This document shows, one piece after another, positions 11,665 through 18,092 of a DNA stretch of 64,000 nucleotides. The position numbers and the translations under genes are program-made. The DNA is taken from contig CAWDYC010000004.1 in assembly GCA_963806535.1 (NCBI GenBank), positions 224,001 through 288,000 on the forward strand, given 5' to 3'. Position 1 is the first letter of the stretch. Every line of letters begins with the position of its first letter. The notes beneath the pieces are model-generated. The model worked only from the letters and a program-made list of their open reading frames with translations, had not been told where the DNA came from and ran no database searches. The stretch is from Candidatus Bathyarchaeota archaeon (GTDB taxonomy: Archaea; Thermoproteota; Bathyarchaeia; Bathyarchaeales; Bathycorpusculaceae).

Positions 11665-12058
11665 ATGCATGCTGGGTTAGCCTTTGTTGTAGGAATTTTA
11701 GTGACCATTGCGGCGTTCCTCTTTTTCGCTGCAATTTCAGGAACAACTTATTATGGCTTAGCAATTTCGGTCGAATTAACCCTTGGAGTGACTCTCATTA
11801 TTGTCGCTTTGATTGTTGCAGCAATATTTTATGTTGGTGTCAAAGCTCAGTTTAGATAGAGTTAAAACAGGGAAAGAAGCCTTAGTCGGGTCCAAAGGTA
11901 TCGCAACGAGCGACTTGAAACCTGAAGGCGAAATACGGGTAATGGGTGAATTCTGGAAAGCTACGGCCAAAGATACCCCAATAGCAGTTGGTCAAGTCGT
12001 GGAAGTTGTCGGTATGGAAGGAATGTTACTTGTCGTAAAACCAGCCTTTACGTCTTGA
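11665..12058 (+). CDS. NfeD-family (short) membrane protein; frameshift near 11857; 3' end is the insertion site of the element
   Basis: TM segments followed by OB-fold TGKEALVG..LKPEGEIRVMGEFWKA..VEVVGMEGMLLVVKP; partner SPFH gene lies beyond the element. Confidence 0.85.
12030..12046 (+). repeat. Left att core
   Basis: TTGTCGTAAAACCAGCC, identical to 17156-17172, encoding VVKPA of NfeD. Confidence 0.95.
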
Positions 12059-12078
12059 TAGATTTCTTGTGTTGTCAT
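12030..12078 (-). CDS. N-terminal fragment of the split integrase (MTTQEIYQDVKAGFTT)
   Basis: ATG at 12078 overlaps the stop of the upstream RHH gene (ATGA); read across the att core it joins the integrase frame at 17155 in the circular form. Confidence 0.8.
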
Positions 12079-12209
12079 TGTTTTTTATCTTCTTTGAAGT
12101 GTTGTTCTAATGCTTGGTTGATGATGTTTGATATGTCGCCTCTTTTGCGGTTTTTTTCTCTTAATTTGTTTTCGTTTTCGGGGGTTATATTAAAAATTAT
12201 TTTTACCAT
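12075..12209 (-). CDS. Small ribbon-helix-helix-like protein (44 aa), not in the ORF track
   Basis: MVKIIFNITPENENKLREKNRKRGDISNIINQALEQHFKEDKKQ: beta strand plus two helices typical of CopG/RHH. Confidence 0.7.
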   Translation of the reverse strand: MVKIIFNITPENENKLREKNRKRGDISNIINQALEQHFKEDKKQ

Positions 12210-12351
12210 TTTGTTTATTCCTTCATTTATTAGAGTTGTAATTGGATAGCTGAATATATAGATATCTTTGTTTTCTTATTATCTAAGATTGGTTTTTCCT
12301 TTGTTGTTTAATTTCTTATTTGTTGATGGTTTTTTATTTTTCAAGTTTTGT

Positions 12352-12456
12352 TAAGTCCCCTTTCTAAGATAGAAGGGGATTTAGGGGCAAGTGTGATAGC
12401 ATACTATAACCTATCTTTTATCAAGAGGTTGGGAAGGAGAGGGATGCTCTCTCCTT
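12352..12456. other. Hairpin cluster in the non-coding region of the element, candidate replication origin
   Basis: Stem-loops at 12352-12383 (TAAGTCCCCTTTCTA/TAGAAGGGGATTTA) and 12434-12456 (AAGGAGAG/CTCTCCTT). Confidence 0.45.
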
Positions 12457-12650
12457 AGTTGTTTTACGTGTGAGTGTCTCTCTCGTTTTTGATGGTTCTG
12501 GGTTTGAGTTAGTTAAATTAGAATATTTTTAGTTTGTTTGTTGGTTTTATTGTATTTTTGTTAGTTTGTAAGTGTGTTTGTTTGTATCTTAATAGTTACG
12601 ATATGTTTAAATTATCATTTGATAAGTTATTAGTCAAGGGGTGATTTAGT

Positions 12651-12746
12651 TTGAAGTGTGAAAGGTGTGGTGTTGAGTTAATCGGGGAAGGTATTGTTTT
12701 CTGTTCTGGTTGTGCAGAAAAAATTTACAGTTCTTTGTCCAGTTAA
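12651..12746 (+). CDS. Tiny zinc-finger protein (31 aa)
   Basis: TTG start with GGGGTGA SD; MKCERCGVELIGEGIVFCSGCAEKIYSSLSS has two CxxC pairs. Confidence 0.55.
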   Translation: MKCERCGVELIGEGIVFCSGCAEKIYSSLSS

Positions 12747-12750
12747 CTTT

Positions 12751-13434
12751 TTAATTTTCTTTTTTTGTTTCTTTGTTTTTTAGTAGCTCTTCAGTGAATT
12801 CTTTTATTAATTCTTTCATTGATCTATCCCAGTTTATGGTTATTTCTTCATTGAGTTTTTCCCAATTTATAGCTGTTTTAGCGTTCAGTTTTGCTTGGTC
12901 TATTATACATTGGTTAATATCTACTTCTTTTATGATTTTGGTTGTTGCTTCTATTAGTATTTGAGTAAACCATTCGTAATTTAGCCATAGATGCAATTTT
13001 GTAAGGGTTTCTATTTCTTTAAGAGGTATATCTTTATGATTTTGAATTGTTTTTAAAAGTCTTATGAAATTGGTTTGATTCCATTTGTTGATTAGGTCTA
13101 AGATAATTAATGGATTGTTTTTTGTTTCCTTTAGTATTGCGTCTATTTTGTTTGAAAATTTTTTCATAATTTCCATTGTTTTTGTGGCTTCTATAATATC
13201 AGATTGGGCTTTGTAGAGGACTGGAATTGGATATTTTTCGCTTTCGATGTCTCTTTTTCTGTCAATTAGACCGTCTTTGGTTAGCTGTTTTAGGTGTTTG
13301 TGTAGTGTTCTTGGGCTTAGTTTGGTAGTTTTTTTTAGGTTGTTGGTTCGGTGCCATTGTCCGTCGGATAGTGCTTTCCAGATTTTTGTTTGTGTTTCGT
13401 AAAATGCTTTTGTGTTTTTGTTTGATTGTATCAT
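12751..13434 (-). CDS. Winged-helix transcription regulator of the element
   Basis: IWKALSDGQWHRTNNLKKTTKLSPRTLHKHLKQLTKDGLI ArsR/HxlR-like HTH. Confidence 0.75.
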   Translation of the reverse strand: MIQSNKNTKAFYETQTKIWKALSDGQWHRTNNLKKTTKLSPRTLHKHLKQLTKDGLIDRKRDIESEKYPIPVLYKAQSDIIEATKTMEIMKKFSNKIDAILKETKNNPLIILDLINKWNQTNFIRLLKTIQNHKDIPLKEIETLTKLHLWLNYEWFTQILIEATTKIIKEVDINQCIIDQAKLNAKTAINWEKLNEEITINWDRSMKELIKEFTEELLKNKETKKEN

Positions 13435-13532
13435 TGTTTTTTACCTTTTTGATGGATGGGTTTACACCTTTTATGAGTTTATGTAGTGTATACTTATTAA
13501 TATTTTCTCGGTTGTTTTTTCGAGGATTAAAT

Positions 13533-13769
13533 ATGGTTAAACTTACTATTGATGTTAAAAAGTTGCTTTTTTTAAAAGTGTTGGTTTTAGTTGTTTCGTC
13601 GGTTTGTTTGTTGGCGATTTCATTGGTTTTTAGTTATGATTATTTTTTTGGATTTGATATTTTGGGTTTTAATCTTAGTTTAGGTTTTTCTGGTTTGCTT
13701 TTCTGTATAGGGATTTTTGAGTTGGCGTGGGCTTTAGCTTTAGTTAGTAGATTTCGGGGGAGAGTTTAA
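13533..13769 (+). CDS. Small two-TM membrane protein
   Basis: ATG at 13533 after GAGGA; two hydrophobic helices and a basic C-terminus. Confidence 0.6.
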   Translation: MVKLTIDVKKLLFLKVLVLVVSSVCLLAISLVFSYDYFFGFDILGFNLSLGFSGLLFCIGIFELAWALALVSRFRGRV

Positions 13770-13770
13770 A

Positions 13771-14430
13771 ATGGTTTCAAAATATATTGCCCTTCCTTTT
13801 ACAATTATTATTTTGCTTAGTATATTTTCGCTTTTAGGGTTAGGTTCTGGTTCATTAACTCAAAGTATGTCTGGTTCTGGTGGATATGGTTCGGGTCAGG
13901 ATGCAAAAAATCCTGGTAATTATACTGGTTGGGTAGATATTTCAGGGCGGTTAATTTTAAATTCTAACGCTGAAGTGGTTGTAAATGATTCTGGTGGTTA
14001 TTTAACATCTGTAACAATCGGCTTCAATTATGGCGGTGGTTTCAATTACTATTGGAACAATGGTACTGGCAAATATTTGTTGACTGAAGTCGGAGCAATC
14101 ACTCAGGGTAATGGTCAAGAGTCAACTGGTGCACTTCAATGGAATTTGAGCACCAGTTTAGGGTTGCTTGTGATTGTGGTTTTGATTATGGGTGTTGGTG
14201 TTGTTGTTGGCTTTCATGTTTTTGGATCAGGTGAAAATGACGTTTCTGTTGGTATGGTGCTGAAAAATACGGGTTTTCTTATGCTTTGGGCGGTTTTTAG
14301 TTCTTTATCGCTTCATTTACTGACACTAATTCCAGATGGGCTTGGTGATATTTTATATTTTGTTTTAACTGGAATGCTAACCATTGGATTAATCGACAGT
14401 ATTGGGCATCCGTCTGGGGGTTATGATTGA
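13771..14430 (+). CDS. Membrane protein: N-terminal hydrophobic helix, Gly/Asn-rich domain, three C-terminal TMs
   Basis: 219-aa ORF packed tightly with its neighbours; hydropathy pattern. Confidence 0.75.
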   Translation: MVSKYIALPFTIIILLSIFSLLGLGSGSLTQSMSGSGGYGSGQDAKNPGNYTGWVDISGRLILNSNAEVVVNDSGGYLTSVTIGFNYGGGFNYYWNNGTGKYLLTEVGAITQGNGQESTGALQWNLSTSLGLLVIVVLIMGVGVVVGFHVFGSGENDVSVGMVLKNTGFLMLWAVFSSLSLHLLTLIPDGLGDILYFVLTGMLTIGLIDSIGHPSGGYD

Positions 14431-14672
14431 TGGGTGCTTCTGTTGTTGTTGGTTCTGTAATTGTGAATAAGGTTGAAAAAGATCGTTTGGCTGTTTGTCC
14501 TTATGCTGAACAGATTGCAGTTCGTTTTGGTGTTCCCCTTTGCCTTTGTTCTTTAGGGTTTGGGGCTTGTCCGTCTCATGGTAGGCGGGCGAAATTTAAG
14601 TTTCATTTTACTGGTTTTGAAGTTGTTTGGGTTTGTGATAGGCTGGATGGGTTTCCAGATTTGGAGCGATGA
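14427..14672 (+). CDS. Small Cys-rich hypothetical protein
   Basis: Overlapping start; CPY..CLC..CP..C residues. Confidence 0.5.
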   Translation: MMGASVVVGSVIVNKVEKDRLAVCPYAEQIAVRFGVPLCLCSLGFGACPSHGRRAKFKFHFTGFEVVWVCDRLDGFPDLER

Positions 14673-14678
14673 TTTTGT

Positions 14679-15869
14679 TTGGGTAAGCGTGAAGAGGATG
14701 AGCTATGGTCTGGTTATGTTTCTTCTTTAGATAAGTCTGAGAGAGTTAAGGCTCGTCAGTGTAAGCATGATTTTGACGTCAAGATGTTTGGTGAGCCTGT
14801 TCATAGATTGACGGGTCAGAAACCTAAAGAGGTTAAGTTTGTTGAAGTTGTTGATGATTCTTCTGAGTCTGAGCCTGATGGTTATGCTCCCATTATTATG
14901 GGTTACCAACGTGTTGGTCATGGTAAAAAGACTAACGATAAGTGTGGTCAATTTATGGGTAATAAGGTTTGTTTGCGTACTGAGTTGCATCATAATAGTT
15001 TGGATGGTTCTATTCATGAGGGTGATGTTTTTGTTCGTAAGAAACATCATCATTGTTTTAATTGGCGTTGTCCAATTTGTTATAAATATTCTTCTGCGGT
15101 TCGTGAAGCTGGCCGTATAAAGCAACGTATTAATGAAGCTTCTAAGCGGTTTGGTGCGAAGCCTGAGCATGGGATTGTTAGTTTTTCAGAGGAAGATAGG
15201 GTTTTGTCTGTGGAAAAGTTGCTTGCTAAAGCTGTTAAGGGTCTTTATGCTCGGGGAATAACAGGTGGTTCTCTTATCCTACATTTGGAGCGTTATCGTT
15301 CTTCTGACTTTGTTCGGGGGGGCATTCGGCATATGAGTGAATGGTATTTTTCGCCTCACGTACATTTTTTGGGTTTTTTTAAAAATGAGTATGGTCGTTG
15401 TCGGAATTGTAAGTGCTATGATGAGTGGGGTTCTAAGAGTACGAAGGGGCATACTCGTCATACTAATCATGGGGGTTCTGCTTGTTTAGGCTGTTCTGGT
15501 TTTGAAGGTTTGACCAGAAGGTTGTATGAGAAGGATGGTTTAATCGTTAAGGTTATGGGTGAGCGAAAGAGTATTTTTGGGACTGCATACTATGAACTTA
15601 ATCATGCTTCGGTTAAGGTTGATAAGAAGCGTTTTCAGATTGTTCATTGGTTTGGTAATTGTAGTAAGCGTAAATTGAAGGTTGTTTTTGAAAAGAATAA
15701 GCAGGTTTGTCCTTGCTGTTTGCATGAGTTGGTTGATGCTCGTTATTTTGGTTCTATGGAGTTTGTAACTTCTTTGGATTCACCTTTTTATGAGCGTGAT
15801 ATGTGGCTTCCAATGAATGAGTATGGTCGTGATGTTTGGGTTGAGAAGGCTACGTGTGGTTCGGGTTAG
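14679..15869 (+). CDS. HUH-superfamily rolling-circle replication initiator-like protein
   Basis: N-terminal Cys/His cluster (C..CPIC), motif-I-like HGIVS, motif II SPHVHFLG, motif-III-like YYELNH, C-terminal CPCC. Confidence 0.75.
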   Translation: MGKREEDELWSGYVSSLDKSERVKARQCKHDFDVKMFGEPVHRLTGQKPKEVKFVEVVDDSSESEPDGYAPIIMGYQRVGHGKKTNDKCGQFMGNKVCLRTELHHNSLDGSIHEGDVFVRKKHHHCFNWRCPICYKYSSAVREAGRIKQRINEASKRFGAKPEHGIVSFSEEDRVLSVEKLLAKAVKGLYARGITGGSLILHLERYRSSDFVRGGIRHMSEWYFSPHVHFLGFFKNEYGRCRNCKCYDEWGSKSTKGHTRHTNHGGSACLGCSGFEGLTRRLYEKDGLIVKVMGERKSIFGTAYYELNHASVKVDKKRFQIVHWFGNCSKRKLKVVFEKNKQVCPCCLHELVDARYFGSMEFVTSLDSPFYERDMWLPMNEYGRDVWVEKATCGSG

Positions 15870-15881
15870 TGGTAACTCTGA

Positions 15882-16163
15882 ATGCTAATGGAGTGTTATT
15901 TGATTATGAAGTATGAAACTTTGAGGAGAATTGAAAAAAATGGTGTTTATATTGCTGAATTTGACCCCAAGGTTCATTGTAAATATAACCCGAATGTTTT
16001 ATGCATTAGATTATATCTTGGTAAGTTTGAGTGTTCTGGTTTTGTTGATAATAAGAAACAGTTTAAGGAAAAACATGAAATGGAAATTGTTTTTTGGCAT
16101 TTGTTTTGTGGTGGTGTTGATGGGTTTTTTGGTTCATTGGTGTTCATATTTATTTGTGTTTAA
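15882..16163 (+). CDS. Hypothetical protein
   Basis: ORF following Rep; boundaries uncertain, overlapping alternative frame. Confidence 0.35.
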   Translation: MLMECYLIMKYETLRRIEKNGVYIAEFDPKVHCKYNPNVLCIRLYLGKFECSGFVDNKKQFKEKHEMEIVFWHLFCGGVDGFFGSLVFIFICV

Positions 16164-16181
16164 ATTGTTTTTATGTTTTGC

Positions 16182-17172
16182 TTATTTTCTTATTCTGAAG
16201 TATTGGTATCCGTCTGCTTCTGTTATTTTCTGGTAGCCTGCGTCTGATAGTTCTATGATGCGTTTTCCTGTGTTTGGTTCTCCTAATTTTACTGCTTCGG
16301 TTTTGTATTCTTCTGGTTCGTCTAAGTTTATGCTTCTTATGTAGCCCAATGTTGTTTCAAGTTGTTTGTGTCTCATAAATCTCATGGTGGCTATTGGGTC
16401 GTGTTTGCCTTCGTGTTTGTAGAATTGTTCTCCTGCGTAGTTTCTTAGGTTTTTTAGGTTTATTAGGTCTAATTCGGGTTTGCATAGTTTTTTTGCTATT
16501 TTTCGTCTGGCTTGTCGCCATGCTTCGCCTTGTGCTTTTGCTTCTGGAAATGGTTGTTCTTTGTTTGTTGTTTTTGATAGGTAAATTCTGAGCATTTCTG
16601 CGGTTTCTGATTTTAGTTTATAGCTTCCGTTGTTGTGTCCTTTTGTGCCTGTTACGGTTAGTTTTCCTTCTTCTTTGTCTATCATTGTTCCTTTTATTCT
16701 GTGTAGTTCTTCGGGTTCTATTGCGGTTTGTGATAGGGTTGTGAATATTGCGGTGTATTTGGTTGATGCCGTGTTTATGATTAGATTCACGTTTTCTTTT
16801 GATGGGATTAGTGGTATTGGGGCTTCGTATTCCATTTTTGGCTTGTCGAATGGGATTTGGTTTTGTTCGCAAAATACGCTGTAATGTTCTAAGATTCTCT
16901 TTTTATAGCCGTTGCTTAGTGTTTTGTTTTTCATGTCGGGTCTTGAGCCTTTTAGCTGTGTTAGAATGTAGAGAAGTGTTTTTGTGCTGTCGAATAGATT
17001 GCAGTTGTCTGCTAATACTGCGAAACTGCTTTGATATTTTGAGATGGTTTGTTGGCTTCTGCCTTTTAGTTTGACTGCTTCGATTGTGTTTTCGATTGCT
17101 GTTTTGGTTCTTTCGTCTAATGGTTTTCTGGCTACTTGTGCGAAATAATGGCGGGTTGTCGTAAAACCAGCC
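16182..17172 (-). CDS. Tyrosine recombinase/integrase, C-terminal fragment (frame open from the att core)
   Basis: KNLR (HxxR position), MRHK..TTLGY (His/Tyr) and GTKG (Lys); the frame stays open 73 codons upstream of ATG 16934 up to the att core. Confidence 0.9.
17156..17172 (+). repeat. Right att core
   Basis: Identical to 12030-12046; followed by GAGCAAAAAGCTTAA, the displaced nfeD end (EQKA-stop). Confidence 0.95.
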
Positions 17173-17222: not shown

Positions 17223-18092
17223 ATGTTGTCAGAAGTTTTAGCTCCAGTAGTAGGATTCATAGGAATCGTAATTGCTCTTTTTCTGTTAAGCGGTATACGC
17301 GTGCTCAGAGAATGGGAGCGAATGCCCGTTTTAAGACTTGGACGCTATGTCGGTTTAAAAGGTCCTGGAATAATCTATCTTGTTCCATTAATTGACAGAG
17401 CACCACTAAAAATCTCAACGAGATTAGACACTATCCAATTCCGCACAGAATCAACCTTAACCAAAGACAACGTTCCGGTAAATGTTGATTCAGTATTATA
17501 CATGAAACCTGTGGATTTGGAAAAGGCTGTGTTGGCCGTTGAAAATTACTATCAAGCGACTCAATTAGCTTCACAAACGACCTTGCGGGAAGTCATCGGC
17601 AAAGTAAGTCTCAACGAGTTGCTAGCTGAACGGGAAAAAGTTGGAGCGCGCCTGCGAGAAATCATCGATGAAAAAACTGAGTCATGGGGAATCAAAGTTA
17701 CATCCGTTGAAGTCCGAGACGTTATCATCCCTGCCAACCTTCAAGACGCTATGAGCCGCCAAGCACAAGCTGAACGAGAACGAATTGCAAGAGTAACCTT
17801 AGCCACAGCTGAGTTCGAAGCATCGGCAAAAATGATTGAGGCAGCAAAAATGTATGAGGCAAGTCCAGAAGGCTTGAGACTTAGATGGATGAACATACTC
17901 TATGAGTTGGGTCAGCAATCTCAAACAAATACGATAATGTTGGTGCCTGCATCTATGCCCGAGGCAGGTTGGCCGCCAATCGGCACTTACGGCTTCAAAG
18001 ACCTAACCACGGCACAACAAGCTCAAGCGGCAAAGAAGAAGCCATTGGTGAATCAAGAGTCGCCCCCACAAACATCTGAACAACCAGAGTAA
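17223..18092 (+). CDS. SPFH/stomatin (slipin) family protein
   Basis: RLGR..GLKGPG, LTKDNVPVNVD, QTTLREVIG and AMSRQAQAERER. Confidence 0.95.
   Translation: MLSEVLAPVVGFIGIVIALFLLSGIRVLREWERMPVLRLGRYVGLKGPGIIYLVPLIDRAPLKISTRLDTIQFRTESTLTKDNVPVNVDSVLYMKPVDLEKAVLAVENYYQATQLASQTTLREVIGKVSLNELLAEREKVGARLREIIDEKTESWGIKVTSVEVRDVIIPANLQDAMSRQAQAERERIARVTLATAEFEASAKMIEAAKMYEASPEGLRLRWMNILYELGQQSQTNTIMLVPASMPEAGWPPIGTYGFKDLTTAQQAQAAKKKPLVNQESPPQTSEQPE

Follow-up and report, generated by a model that had tools for sequence, protein, structure and literature searches.

What kind of element interrupts the nfeD gene of a Candidatus Bathyarchaeota archaeon, how did it get there and how might it replicate? 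The locus lies in a 64-kb stretch (hereafter the window) of contig CAWDYC010000004.1, which is contig 4 of a 2.95-Mb, 12-contig assembly (GCA_963806535.1, 91.75% complete). A sequence-only reading of this window had proposed that a 5126-bp block bounded by direct repeats is a complete integrated rolling-circle element. We found that the block is a small mobile element inserted precisely and site-specifically into the 3’ end of nfeD, immediately upstream of an SPFH/stomatin-like gene. Its integrase gene runs out of both ends of the insert, and its Rep-like protein has relatives in a large number of archaeal genomes and metagenomes.

The 17-mer TTGTCGTAAAACCAGCC is present exactly twice in the window (attL and attR cores, Table 1). 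No third copy was found in the window with 2 mismatches allowed, and none appeared in 100 shuffles, which bears out the perfect direct repeats described earlier. The insert together with one core measures 5126 bp. Its GC content is 28–41% vs 41–47% in the flanks. When the block is cut out by script, ...GTAAAACCAGCC meets GAGCAAAAAGCTTAA and the restored nfeD ends in VVKPAEQKA-stop, with the SPFH ATG (17223) following 35 bp later, exactly as the sequence-only reading had it. A straight blastn alignment across this computed empty junction was obtained for 10 of the 13 matching SPFH loci of relatives; for the other three (L008, L019, L020) the SPFH side alone matched. The eight congeneric loci that we aligned multiply (L009-L016) all carry an uninterrupted nfeD-SPFH arrangement with a single core. 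Their nfeD genes end in ...GTAAAACC(A/G)(G/A)CCGAGCAAAAAGCTTAA, that is, in one core and then EQKA-stop, with SPFH close downstream. The observation named beforehand as refuting the insertion, namely relatives that never show contiguous nfeD-SPFH with one core, is therefore the opposite of what these eight congeners show. Two further loci among the ten spanning the junction (L017, L018) gave no alignment to a 230-nt junction query. Since the relatives’ cores depart from the window core at 1–5 positions, the perfect match between the two window cores marks recombination and not conservation.

The integrase gene is divided between the two ends of the block. Its frame on the minus strand is open from the stop at 16182 through the right core and contains no start codon. 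At the right core it reads ...TAA AFCS AGFTTT RHYFAQVARKPLDERTK..., with the TAA 4 codons upstream, and past this TAA the first ATG/GTG/TTG in frame occurs only at 16934. We rejected this internal ATG as the true start: the conserved columns L52, P64, V67 and I71 lie upstream of it, and it is therefore located within the conserved N-terminal domain. At the opposite end of the block a short ATG-led ORF, Int(N), leads into the left core; counted from the core, its frame is that of the integrase body, Int(C). Joining Int(N) by script to 17172-16185 through one core gave a 340-aa open reading frame (ORF) that begins with M and contains no stop. attP is therefore positioned inside integrase codons 12–17, and the gene was cut by integration. 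The same layout was present in 6/6 elements examined, i.e. the window element and five metagenome contigs with a whole element between direct repeats. In these five contigs the right core is read through by the integrase frame, and the left core is entered, in matching frame, by an ORF of 11–80 codons that starts with ATG. Judged from the sequence the gene is split, presumably by a recombination event, and insertion by site-specific recombination at attP inside the integrase gene is well supported. The block is thus not the complete element it had been taken for, since it represents an integrated copy without a start codon for the conserved integrase N-terminal domain. The proposed tyrosine integrase holds as to the identity of the recombinase; as a whole gene it does not, being divided between both ends. 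Because the integrated gene has no start codon, the window copy would be excised only with integrase supplied in trans by another copy, and self-excision is unlikely.

A profile of 23 members of the integrase family matches archaeal XerA structures (E 2.5e-21 and 6.2e-19), followed by IntI4, XerD and XerH. PF00589 is matched by 23/23 members; PF16795 is matched by 0/23 at E<=1, in a search run without a known SSV integrase as positive control. Taken alone, the window integrase scores 22.2 bits on PF00589, below the cut-off of 27.1. The catalytic residues K179, R245, H270 and Y279 are invariant across all 23 rows of the alignment. On this comparison the window enzyme is assigned to the PF00589/XerA-like recombinases and not to the PF16795 family.

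The second hallmark of the block is the 396-aa Rep-like protein. Its motifs follow each other in the order zinc cluster (C89, C98, H104, C126, C131, C134), EHIxxSxP in the position of motif I (EH 163-164), HxFRY (H202..Y206), SPHFHxLGF as HUH motif (H227/H229), a second Cys cluster (C241, C244, C272), TAxYQLxH as Tyr motif (Y305) and CPxC at the C-terminus. In an alignment of 85 diverse members C126, C131, H202, H227, Y305 and H309 are invariant, and H229, H164, R205 and eight further Cys are conserved in ≥90%. In the AlphaFold model (pLDDT 72, core blocks 85–95) HxH is part of a strand and the Tyr part of a helix. Foldseek against BFVD gave 9 matches at E<=1e-3 (best E 1.5e-6, probability 1.0) with unnamed top rows; the named matches among the first 50 rows are microvirus replication initiators, ORF2/G2P Rep and a parvovirus NS protein (E 8.9e-3 to 1.5e-2). 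In the ESM Atlas the protein is nearest to its own unnamed clusters (0.97–0.98), followed by 11 Rep_1-bearing clusters (best 0.96). When the family was aligned by hhalign with 26 zinc-ribbon Rep_1/G2P proteins, both ribbons, motif I, HxH and the Tyr motif lined up in order over 192 columns. One Pfam Rep_1 match in a congener turned out to be a member of the Rep-like family. Evidence for an HUH fold is suggestive but not conclusive. All in all the protein is probably an HUH initiator of a family without a curated entry.

Relatives of the Rep-like protein are widespread. We found them in 40 of 100 congeneric genomes, at 72 loci in GTDB representatives and, confirmed by tblastn, on at least 341 metagenome stretches. 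Clustering at 50% identity yielded 1537 clusters at E<=1e-3 and 347 at E<=1e-30. Those that carry a name are all ‘hypothetical’, and none has a precomputed Pfam domain. Those from GTDB representatives belong nearly all to Candidatus Bathyarchaeota/Bathyarchaeia from fen, bog, palsa, peat and mill samples. Distant homologues with 24–30% identity and the same motifs are found in Nitrosopumilaceae (L124 7770-8804, L125 6463-7395, L126 7926-8864), so the family reaches the ammonia-oxidising archaea; their neighbors are a tyrosine integrase (L125, L126) and a gene of the wHTH (winged helix-turn-helix) type (L124).

The anatomy of these loci resembles that of the window element. A convergent integrase follows Rep in 86/152 loci, and homologues of the 44-aa ORF (5 loci), the wHTH protein (9 loci) and the 81-aa protein (5 loci) keep their relative positions. 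Of 76 loci that could be tested, 57 have an exact repeat of 14–36 bp both upstream of Rep and at the projected integrase start. This number does not count independent insertions, because some loci represent one element in several data sets (L072/L141/L144; L205/L206; L162/L164). The elements delimited in this way are 3.1–11.6 kb long (median 5.1 kb). Among whole metagenome contigs with an integrase, 21/36 end between -60 and +150 bp from the projected integrase start. Five small contigs consist of an entire element plus ~100 bp of flank per side. Counted from the base with which the right core begins, the contig end follows after 126–127 nt in 4/5 cases, and in 2/5 the first element base is located at 127–128. 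With k=127 assumed for the assemblers, such ends would match graph branching at places where occupied and empty or circular junctions coexist. A near-identical copy of the window element was not found in 119 congeneric genomes, the best match being 79% over 189 nt. In the search for CRISPR spacers the remainder of the element’s own genome gave no match >20 nt, and the 119 congeners gave only matches of 26–41 nt with 85–96% identity, which were not taken as spacers.

Furthermore, the block stands out by its composition. Its + strand is G- and T-rich throughout, with a GC skew of +0.18 to +0.47 and an AT skew of -0.18 to -0.61. The bias includes the two oppositely running genes of the block and, as genes of both orientations are covered, is not due to coding or transcription. 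Among 5832 3-kb segments of the genome the block is the most asymmetric (score 0.72 vs 0.65 for the 99.9th percentile). The 57 repeat-delimited relatives, read with Rep on the + strand, show a mean GC skew of +0.20 and a mean AT skew of -0.25, and 42/57 lie beyond +/-0.1 on both measures; in their flanks the means are -0.01 and -0.01, with 0/42 beyond +/-0.1. Cytosine deamination on a long-lived single strand produces a C-poor, T-rich bias, as is established for phages with single-stranded DNA (ssDNA). The bias would thus fit a single-stranded stage of replication. Together the motifs, the weak fold and feature matches and the composition make rolling-circle replication of the element likely.

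The same genome contains a decayed second relative on contig 6 at ~86–92 kb (L006 4900-9700). Its Rep is divided into two frames (233 + 119 aa) and adjoins an insertion sequence (IS)-type transposase, its 314-aa integrase is 29% identical, and its strand bias is much weaker, as would be expected if the window copy is recent. That the window element arrived recently is likewise indicated by its perfect repeats, its intact ORFs and a composition that has not ameliorated. The second most asymmetric region of the genome (contig 3, ~482 kb; 478–485 kb, L208 4000-10500) was considered as a related element and rejected, as it is a type I restriction-modification locus. Its HsdM-/HsdR-like genes are broken up over several frames and have low-complexity tails.

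We therefore consider it probable that the block is the integrated copy of a small circular Bathyarchaeia replicon, either a plasmid or a virus, with attP in its integrase gene, which would take a rolling-circle route once excised. In the circular form the 44-aa ORF, which resembles a ribbon-helix-helix (RHH) protein, and the 340-aa integrase would form one operon, because the Int(N) ATG overlaps the stop of the 44-aa ORF (ATGA). The circle would have been inserted, and the core duplicated, when attP recombined with the identical 17 bp of the nfeD 3’ end. This would have left the 11-codon integrase head at the left end and the start-less body at the right end. After excision the HUH-type protein may nick the Rep-sense, T/G-rich strand at some origin and so initiate rolling-circle replication. 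The displaced strand would then be single-stranded for a time and acquire a C-to-T-type strand bias.

Several observations weigh against this scenario. In the integrase, the Arg of the Arg-I box (GLRxxEL) is replaced by Glu (TAIEPEEL in the window). It is missing in 15/23 rows including the 14 closest, and retained as GLRP.EL or GTRP.EL in the 8 most distant ones. Activity of the enzyme is for this reason not assured; the many precise insertions arguably indicate that integrases of the family work. The Rep-like protein has no match in Pfam, PHROGs or NCBIfam and none in the PDB by sequence. Its model gave no Foldseek PDB match at E<=1e-3, ferredoxin-like proteins forming the top rows, and tblastn against phage and plasmid collections yielded nothing at E<=1. 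TM-scores of the BFVD matches are only 0.2–0.3, and only 2/85 members weakly match Rep_1. The hhalign comparison with the 26 Rep_1/G2P proteins has an E of 0.014 and a probability of 3%, and alignment to two single Rep_1-like proteins was not significant. What had been claimed as an HUH Rep-like protein thus stands by its invariant HUH and Tyr motifs, not by a match to a curated HUH family or PDB fold. In addition, 0/80 metagenome loci are on circular contigs (terminal overlap ≥15 bp), and relatives are absent from IMG/VR and from the phage and plasmid collections. A nick site or origin was not found: CTTGATA occurs once on the + strand and is not conserved in 5 relatives, and a search for shared 9–11-mers gave none that is conserved, the sole shared 11-mer encoding the integrase C-terminus. 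As an observation on the integrase alignment, nine Arg-less rows have LRH for LGH, with Arg in place of Gly, right before the conserved His. This may be a compensating change for the missing Arg-I (residues ~150–160 and 265–272).

Unlikely, but best placed among the alternatives, is that the block is a provirus. Its free form would be packaged, perhaps as ssDNA in a membrane vesicle or a small spindle, with the 219-aa and the 78-aa protein as virion proteins in the manner of pleolipoviruses. Strand bias of the observed kind is seen in ssDNA viruses. The 219-aa protein combines a signal-like N-terminus and a variable middle with a conserved anchor, and it recurs on a contig of 5311 bp (one homologue, 36% identity over the full 219 aa). 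Its ESM Atlas neighbors are viral hypothetical clusters, at only 0.87. However, no capsid, spike or packaging family was matched in PHROGs or Pfam, IMG/VR contains no relatives, and elements of only 3.1–3.6 kb exist. Both membrane ORFs are absent from the 152 related loci and are therefore not hallmarks of the family. Moreover, hydrophobic ORFs are to be expected on the + strand because of its T/G-rich composition. Of the two membrane proteins proposed before, the 219-aa one has a homologue, while the 78-aa one has none and may not be real.

Rather less probable still is that the 396-aa protein is a zinc-finger DNA-binding protein or another kind of initiator instead of an HUH nickase, in which case replication would follow a different route and the bias would have to be caused by something else. 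The lack of a matching curated HUH family or solved structure and the hhalign probability given above speak for this view, and the many invariant Cys and His could be structural zinc ligands only. Against it, motif I, HxH on a strand and Tyr on a helix are kept in invariant order over 85 members, the BFVD matches that carry a name are replication initiators, the language-model features point to Rep_1, and the bias spans both gene orientations. As a separate observation, we noticed a Rep_1/G2P family of ~230–300 aa with N- and C-terminal zinc ribbons (L210 1360-2040, G174; P0220-P0277). It is mostly located on 1–7-kb metagenome contigs, possibly very small free replicons.

It is highly improbable that the block is an HUH transposon of the IS91/Helitron type moved by the Rep-like protein, with the integrase as a passenger. 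Weak matches to the IS91 transposase zinc domain were obtained for 5/85 Rep-like members (best E 0.022), but the ends are an exact direct repeat inside the integrase frame in 6/6 elements, and specific RNA-gene targets common to many loci are the mark of site-specific tyrosine recombination rather than of rolling-circle transposition. That a free element was joined to the chromosome in error can be dismissed almost entirely: a 12-contig metagenome-type assembly of 91.75% completeness would allow for such a chimera, but the exact core is found at both junctions and matches the 3’ end of the host gene itself in congeners, and the repeat-bounded layout recurs in 57/76 other loci.

Several kinds of target were recognised among the relatives. 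Cores in tRNA genes were detected with ARAGORN at 13 loci or more. At 7 loci the core pattern indicates the 3’ end of RNase P RNA; Rfam confirmed 3 of these with 186–209 bits (L062 12295-12595, L100 10481-10785, L123 11754-12054). A further 16 loci (L065, L074, L080-L082, L088, L089, L092, L094, L098, L112, L121, L166, L171, L174, L175) have the element in the 5’ half of a gene of ~65 nt that contains C, D’, C’ and D-like boxes as well as a terminal stem. The order of its parts is GGGG, AUGAUGU, guide, CUGA, AUGA(C/A)GA, guide, CAGA, CCCC. Read by eye, this target looks like a C/D-box small RNA (sRNA), which has no Rfam match. One locus of this class (L088) is on a contig titled as a Methanocella sp. 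metagenome-assembled genome, which could be due to faulty binning or else to a wider range of hosts.

The attP region of the window element (core + TTT) resembles the RNase P-type core (TTGTCGTAAAACCAGCCTTT vs TGGTCGTAACCCGCCTTT), and KAG(F/Y) is common to the integrase heads of the window and the RNase P type. The integrase body, by contrast, is 42–44% identical to tRNA-targeting relatives vs 27–28% to RNase P-targeting ones. For this reason we put forward a change of target, with nfeD replacing the RNase P RNA gene, as a hypothesis and not as a result. The RNase P-type cores are not themselves nfeD sites, since nfeD and SPFH were not found beside them. In the window’s own genome no RNase P RNA scored above the Rfam cut-off (best 22 bits), and a 44-nt blastn match on C11 was not borne out by Rfam (regions C9:153724-153912 and C11:66500-70500); the gene possibly falls into a gap of the assembly.

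The ORFs listed by the sequence-only reading all exist (Table 1), and their proposed functions fared differently. A wHTH regulator is upheld by an HxlR match above the cut-off and by homologues upstream of Rep in 9 related loci. The RHH assignment of the 44-aa ORF follows from its sequence pattern, with no match in Pfam or NCBIfam. The zinc-finger microproteins are seen as Cys-rich ORFs, for which all Pfam zinc matches are sub-threshold. The 31-aa, 78-aa, 93-aa and 219-aa ORFs have no counterparts in the 152 related loci. The non-coding stretch with its two hairpins has a DNA fold of -18.8 kcal/mol (z -3.9), and 0/200 shuffles were equally stable. It is a candidate replication origin.

Table 1. 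Location of the element, its ORFs and the flanking host genes in the window.
Feature	Position	Strand	Remarks
Host nfeD	11665..12058	+	N-terminal membrane part 11665-11859, C-terminal NfeD domain 11813-12058, two frames
attL core, 17 bp	12030..12046		Exact repeat, 0 expected by chance
Int(N), integrase 5’ end	12030..12078	-	ATG 12078-12076, 11 codons MTTQEIYQDVK, then core
44-aa ORF, RHH-like by pattern	12075..12209	-	tblastn homologues at left end of 5 related loci
Non-coding stretch, two strong hairpins (12352-12383, 12433-12457)	12330..12480	+	Inverted repeats I3, I7
31-aa CxxC...CxxC zinc-ribbon ORF	12651..12746	+	Sub-threshold Pfam zinc ribbons, E 0.006-0.02
227-aa winged-helix protein	12751..13434	-	HxlR at 21.4 bits (cut-off 20.8), further wHTH families also matched
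78-aa hydrophobic ORF, possibly not real	13533..13769	+	No family match, no homologue
219-aa membrane protein	13771..14430	+	Membrane domain at the C-terminus conserved, N-terminus signal-like, middle variable
81-aa Cys/His-rich protein, immediately upstream of Rep	14427..14672	+	Same position in 5 related loci; Zn_Ribbon_Prim E 0.023 (weak)
Rep-like 396-aa protein	14679..15869	+	HUH and Tyr motifs, Cys clusters, 1537 clusters of relatives
93-aa ORF, function unassigned	15882..16163	+	No family match, no homologue
Int(C), integrase body	16182..17172	-	Open from right core to stop at 16182
attR core, 17 bp	17156..17172		Exact repeat
Host SPFH/stomatin-like gene, nfeD partner	17223..18092	+	83-94% identical orthologues beside nfeD in L009-L016

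In the left flank the C-terminal domain of NfeD matches PF01957 with an E of 6.5e-18. The insertion alters the last codons of nfeD from ...VVKPAEQKA-stop to ...VVKPAFTS-stop. In 7 congeners nfeD is a single ORF of 130–150 aa, and the contiguous NfeD-domain/SPFH gene pair is present in 8. The window gene carries a 1-nt insertion near 11857 (11850-11860; AGATAGAG vs AG[AG]N-G[ATG]G in 7/7 congeners), which yields a TAG and a frameshift between the membrane part and the NfeD domain. As the extra nucleotide is missing from all 7 congeners, the frameshift is independent of the element; it marks either a pseudogene or a sequencing error. One genome (G014) has SPFH without an upstream nfeD, and no element was found at that place.

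Has such a family been described before? The available text of a study of the Bathyarchaeia virome lists head-tail, filamentous and spindle viruses only, all with double-stranded DNA (dsDNA) (PMC10541130), and that of a Bathy-6 genome paper reports one 47-kb provirus (PMC11697101). The accessible parts of two recent papers, on archaeal proviruses and on Asgard elements, make no mention of rolling-circle elements of Bathyarchaeia. A description of the family was not found in the full-text literature on Bathyarchaeia rolling-circle elements, integrases or plasmids, supplementary tables not being covered, and the literature searched contained no mention of Bathyarchaeia plasmids. The suspected novelty of the family is in line with this, and the 1537 Rep clusters and the 40/100 congeneric genomes attest to its size. 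Extending the reading to the whole family, we tentatively suggest, at somewhat less than even chances, that these are 3–8-kb rolling-circle replicons of mesophilic Thermoproteota, namely of Bathyarchaeia and, as distant relatives, of Nitrosopumilaceae, which use structured RNA genes as targets. Their XerA-like integrases, many without Arg-I, would split themselves independently of those of SSV, pTN3 and pT26-2, and the window would represent a target switch to a protein gene with an RNase P-like 3’ end.

Bathyarchaeia are among the most abundant archaea of sediments and soils, and to our knowledge there are no genetic tools for them. An element of 5 kb that replicates by itself, integrates site-specifically and has defined att sites would be a natural candidate for a Bathyarchaeia vector. 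The Rep family, with ~1500 clusters and no Pfam entry, would form a sizeable new branch of HUH initiators. Attachment sites in RNase P RNA and C/D-box sRNA genes may broaden the known RNA-gene targets. If the integrase family is truly outside the PF16795 clade, it would challenge the single origin of self-splitting integrases and their confinement to hyperthermophiles, as put forward in the available sections of PMC8371274.

Compared with known initiators, the Rep-like protein shares with the zinc-ribbon subgroup of Rep_1 (PF01446)/REP_ORF2-G2P (PF23343) the order of ribbon, motif I, HxH, Tyr and CPxC. Unlike these proteins it is larger, has an extra internal Cys cluster and gives no significant sequence match. 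The initiators of Microviridae (phiX174 gpA/VP4 type) resemble it by the BFVD fold matches, but at TM-scores of 0.2–0.3 and without sequence similarity. Pleolipoviruses such as HRPV-1 have small circular genomes, a rolling-circle Rep and few membrane proteins, and related proviruses integrate. The window element differs from them in having no homology in PHROGs or Pfam and no conserved ATPase gene.

In the suicidal (SSV-type, type I) integrases of SSV1, pTN3 and pT26-2 attP is likewise located in the integrase ORF and integration produces int(N) and int(C); as far as the available sections of the source go, all known suicidal integrases are placed in PF16795 with a single origin and assigned to hyperthermophiles, and an integrated copy is not expected to excise by itself (PMC8371274). 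As in these systems, the integrase gene of the window element contains attP and is split on integration, and relatives of the element target tRNA genes. In contrast to SSV1, pTN3 and pT26-2, the family matches PF00589 (23/23) and not PF16795 (0/23), its nearest solved relatives being XerA. The integrase head has only 11 codons, and the core in nfeD comprises 17 bp (14–36 bp in relatives) vs the usual 40–50 bp of SSV-type elements, where the core mostly corresponds to a tRNA gene. Furthermore, the hosts are labelled as Bathyarchaeia of peat, fen and soil and not as hyperthermophiles, and the element encodes an HUH-like replication protein.

Comparable elements are known from Thaumarchaeota. Most archaeal integrases target tRNA genes, as the sequence-only reading stated. 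The use of a protein gene is nevertheless not unusual, as 14/68 thaumarchaeal integrated elements are located in the 3’ ends of protein genes according to the accessible text of PMC6563490. The same source describes NitAQ6f-E2 with a rolling-circle endonuclease and NitEve-E3 with a split SSV1-like integrase (PMC6563490). Like these elements, the window element is small, carries an integrase and resides in mesophilic archaea. Unlike them, it unites a split integrase and a Rep-like protein in one element, a combination that defines a family of hundreds.

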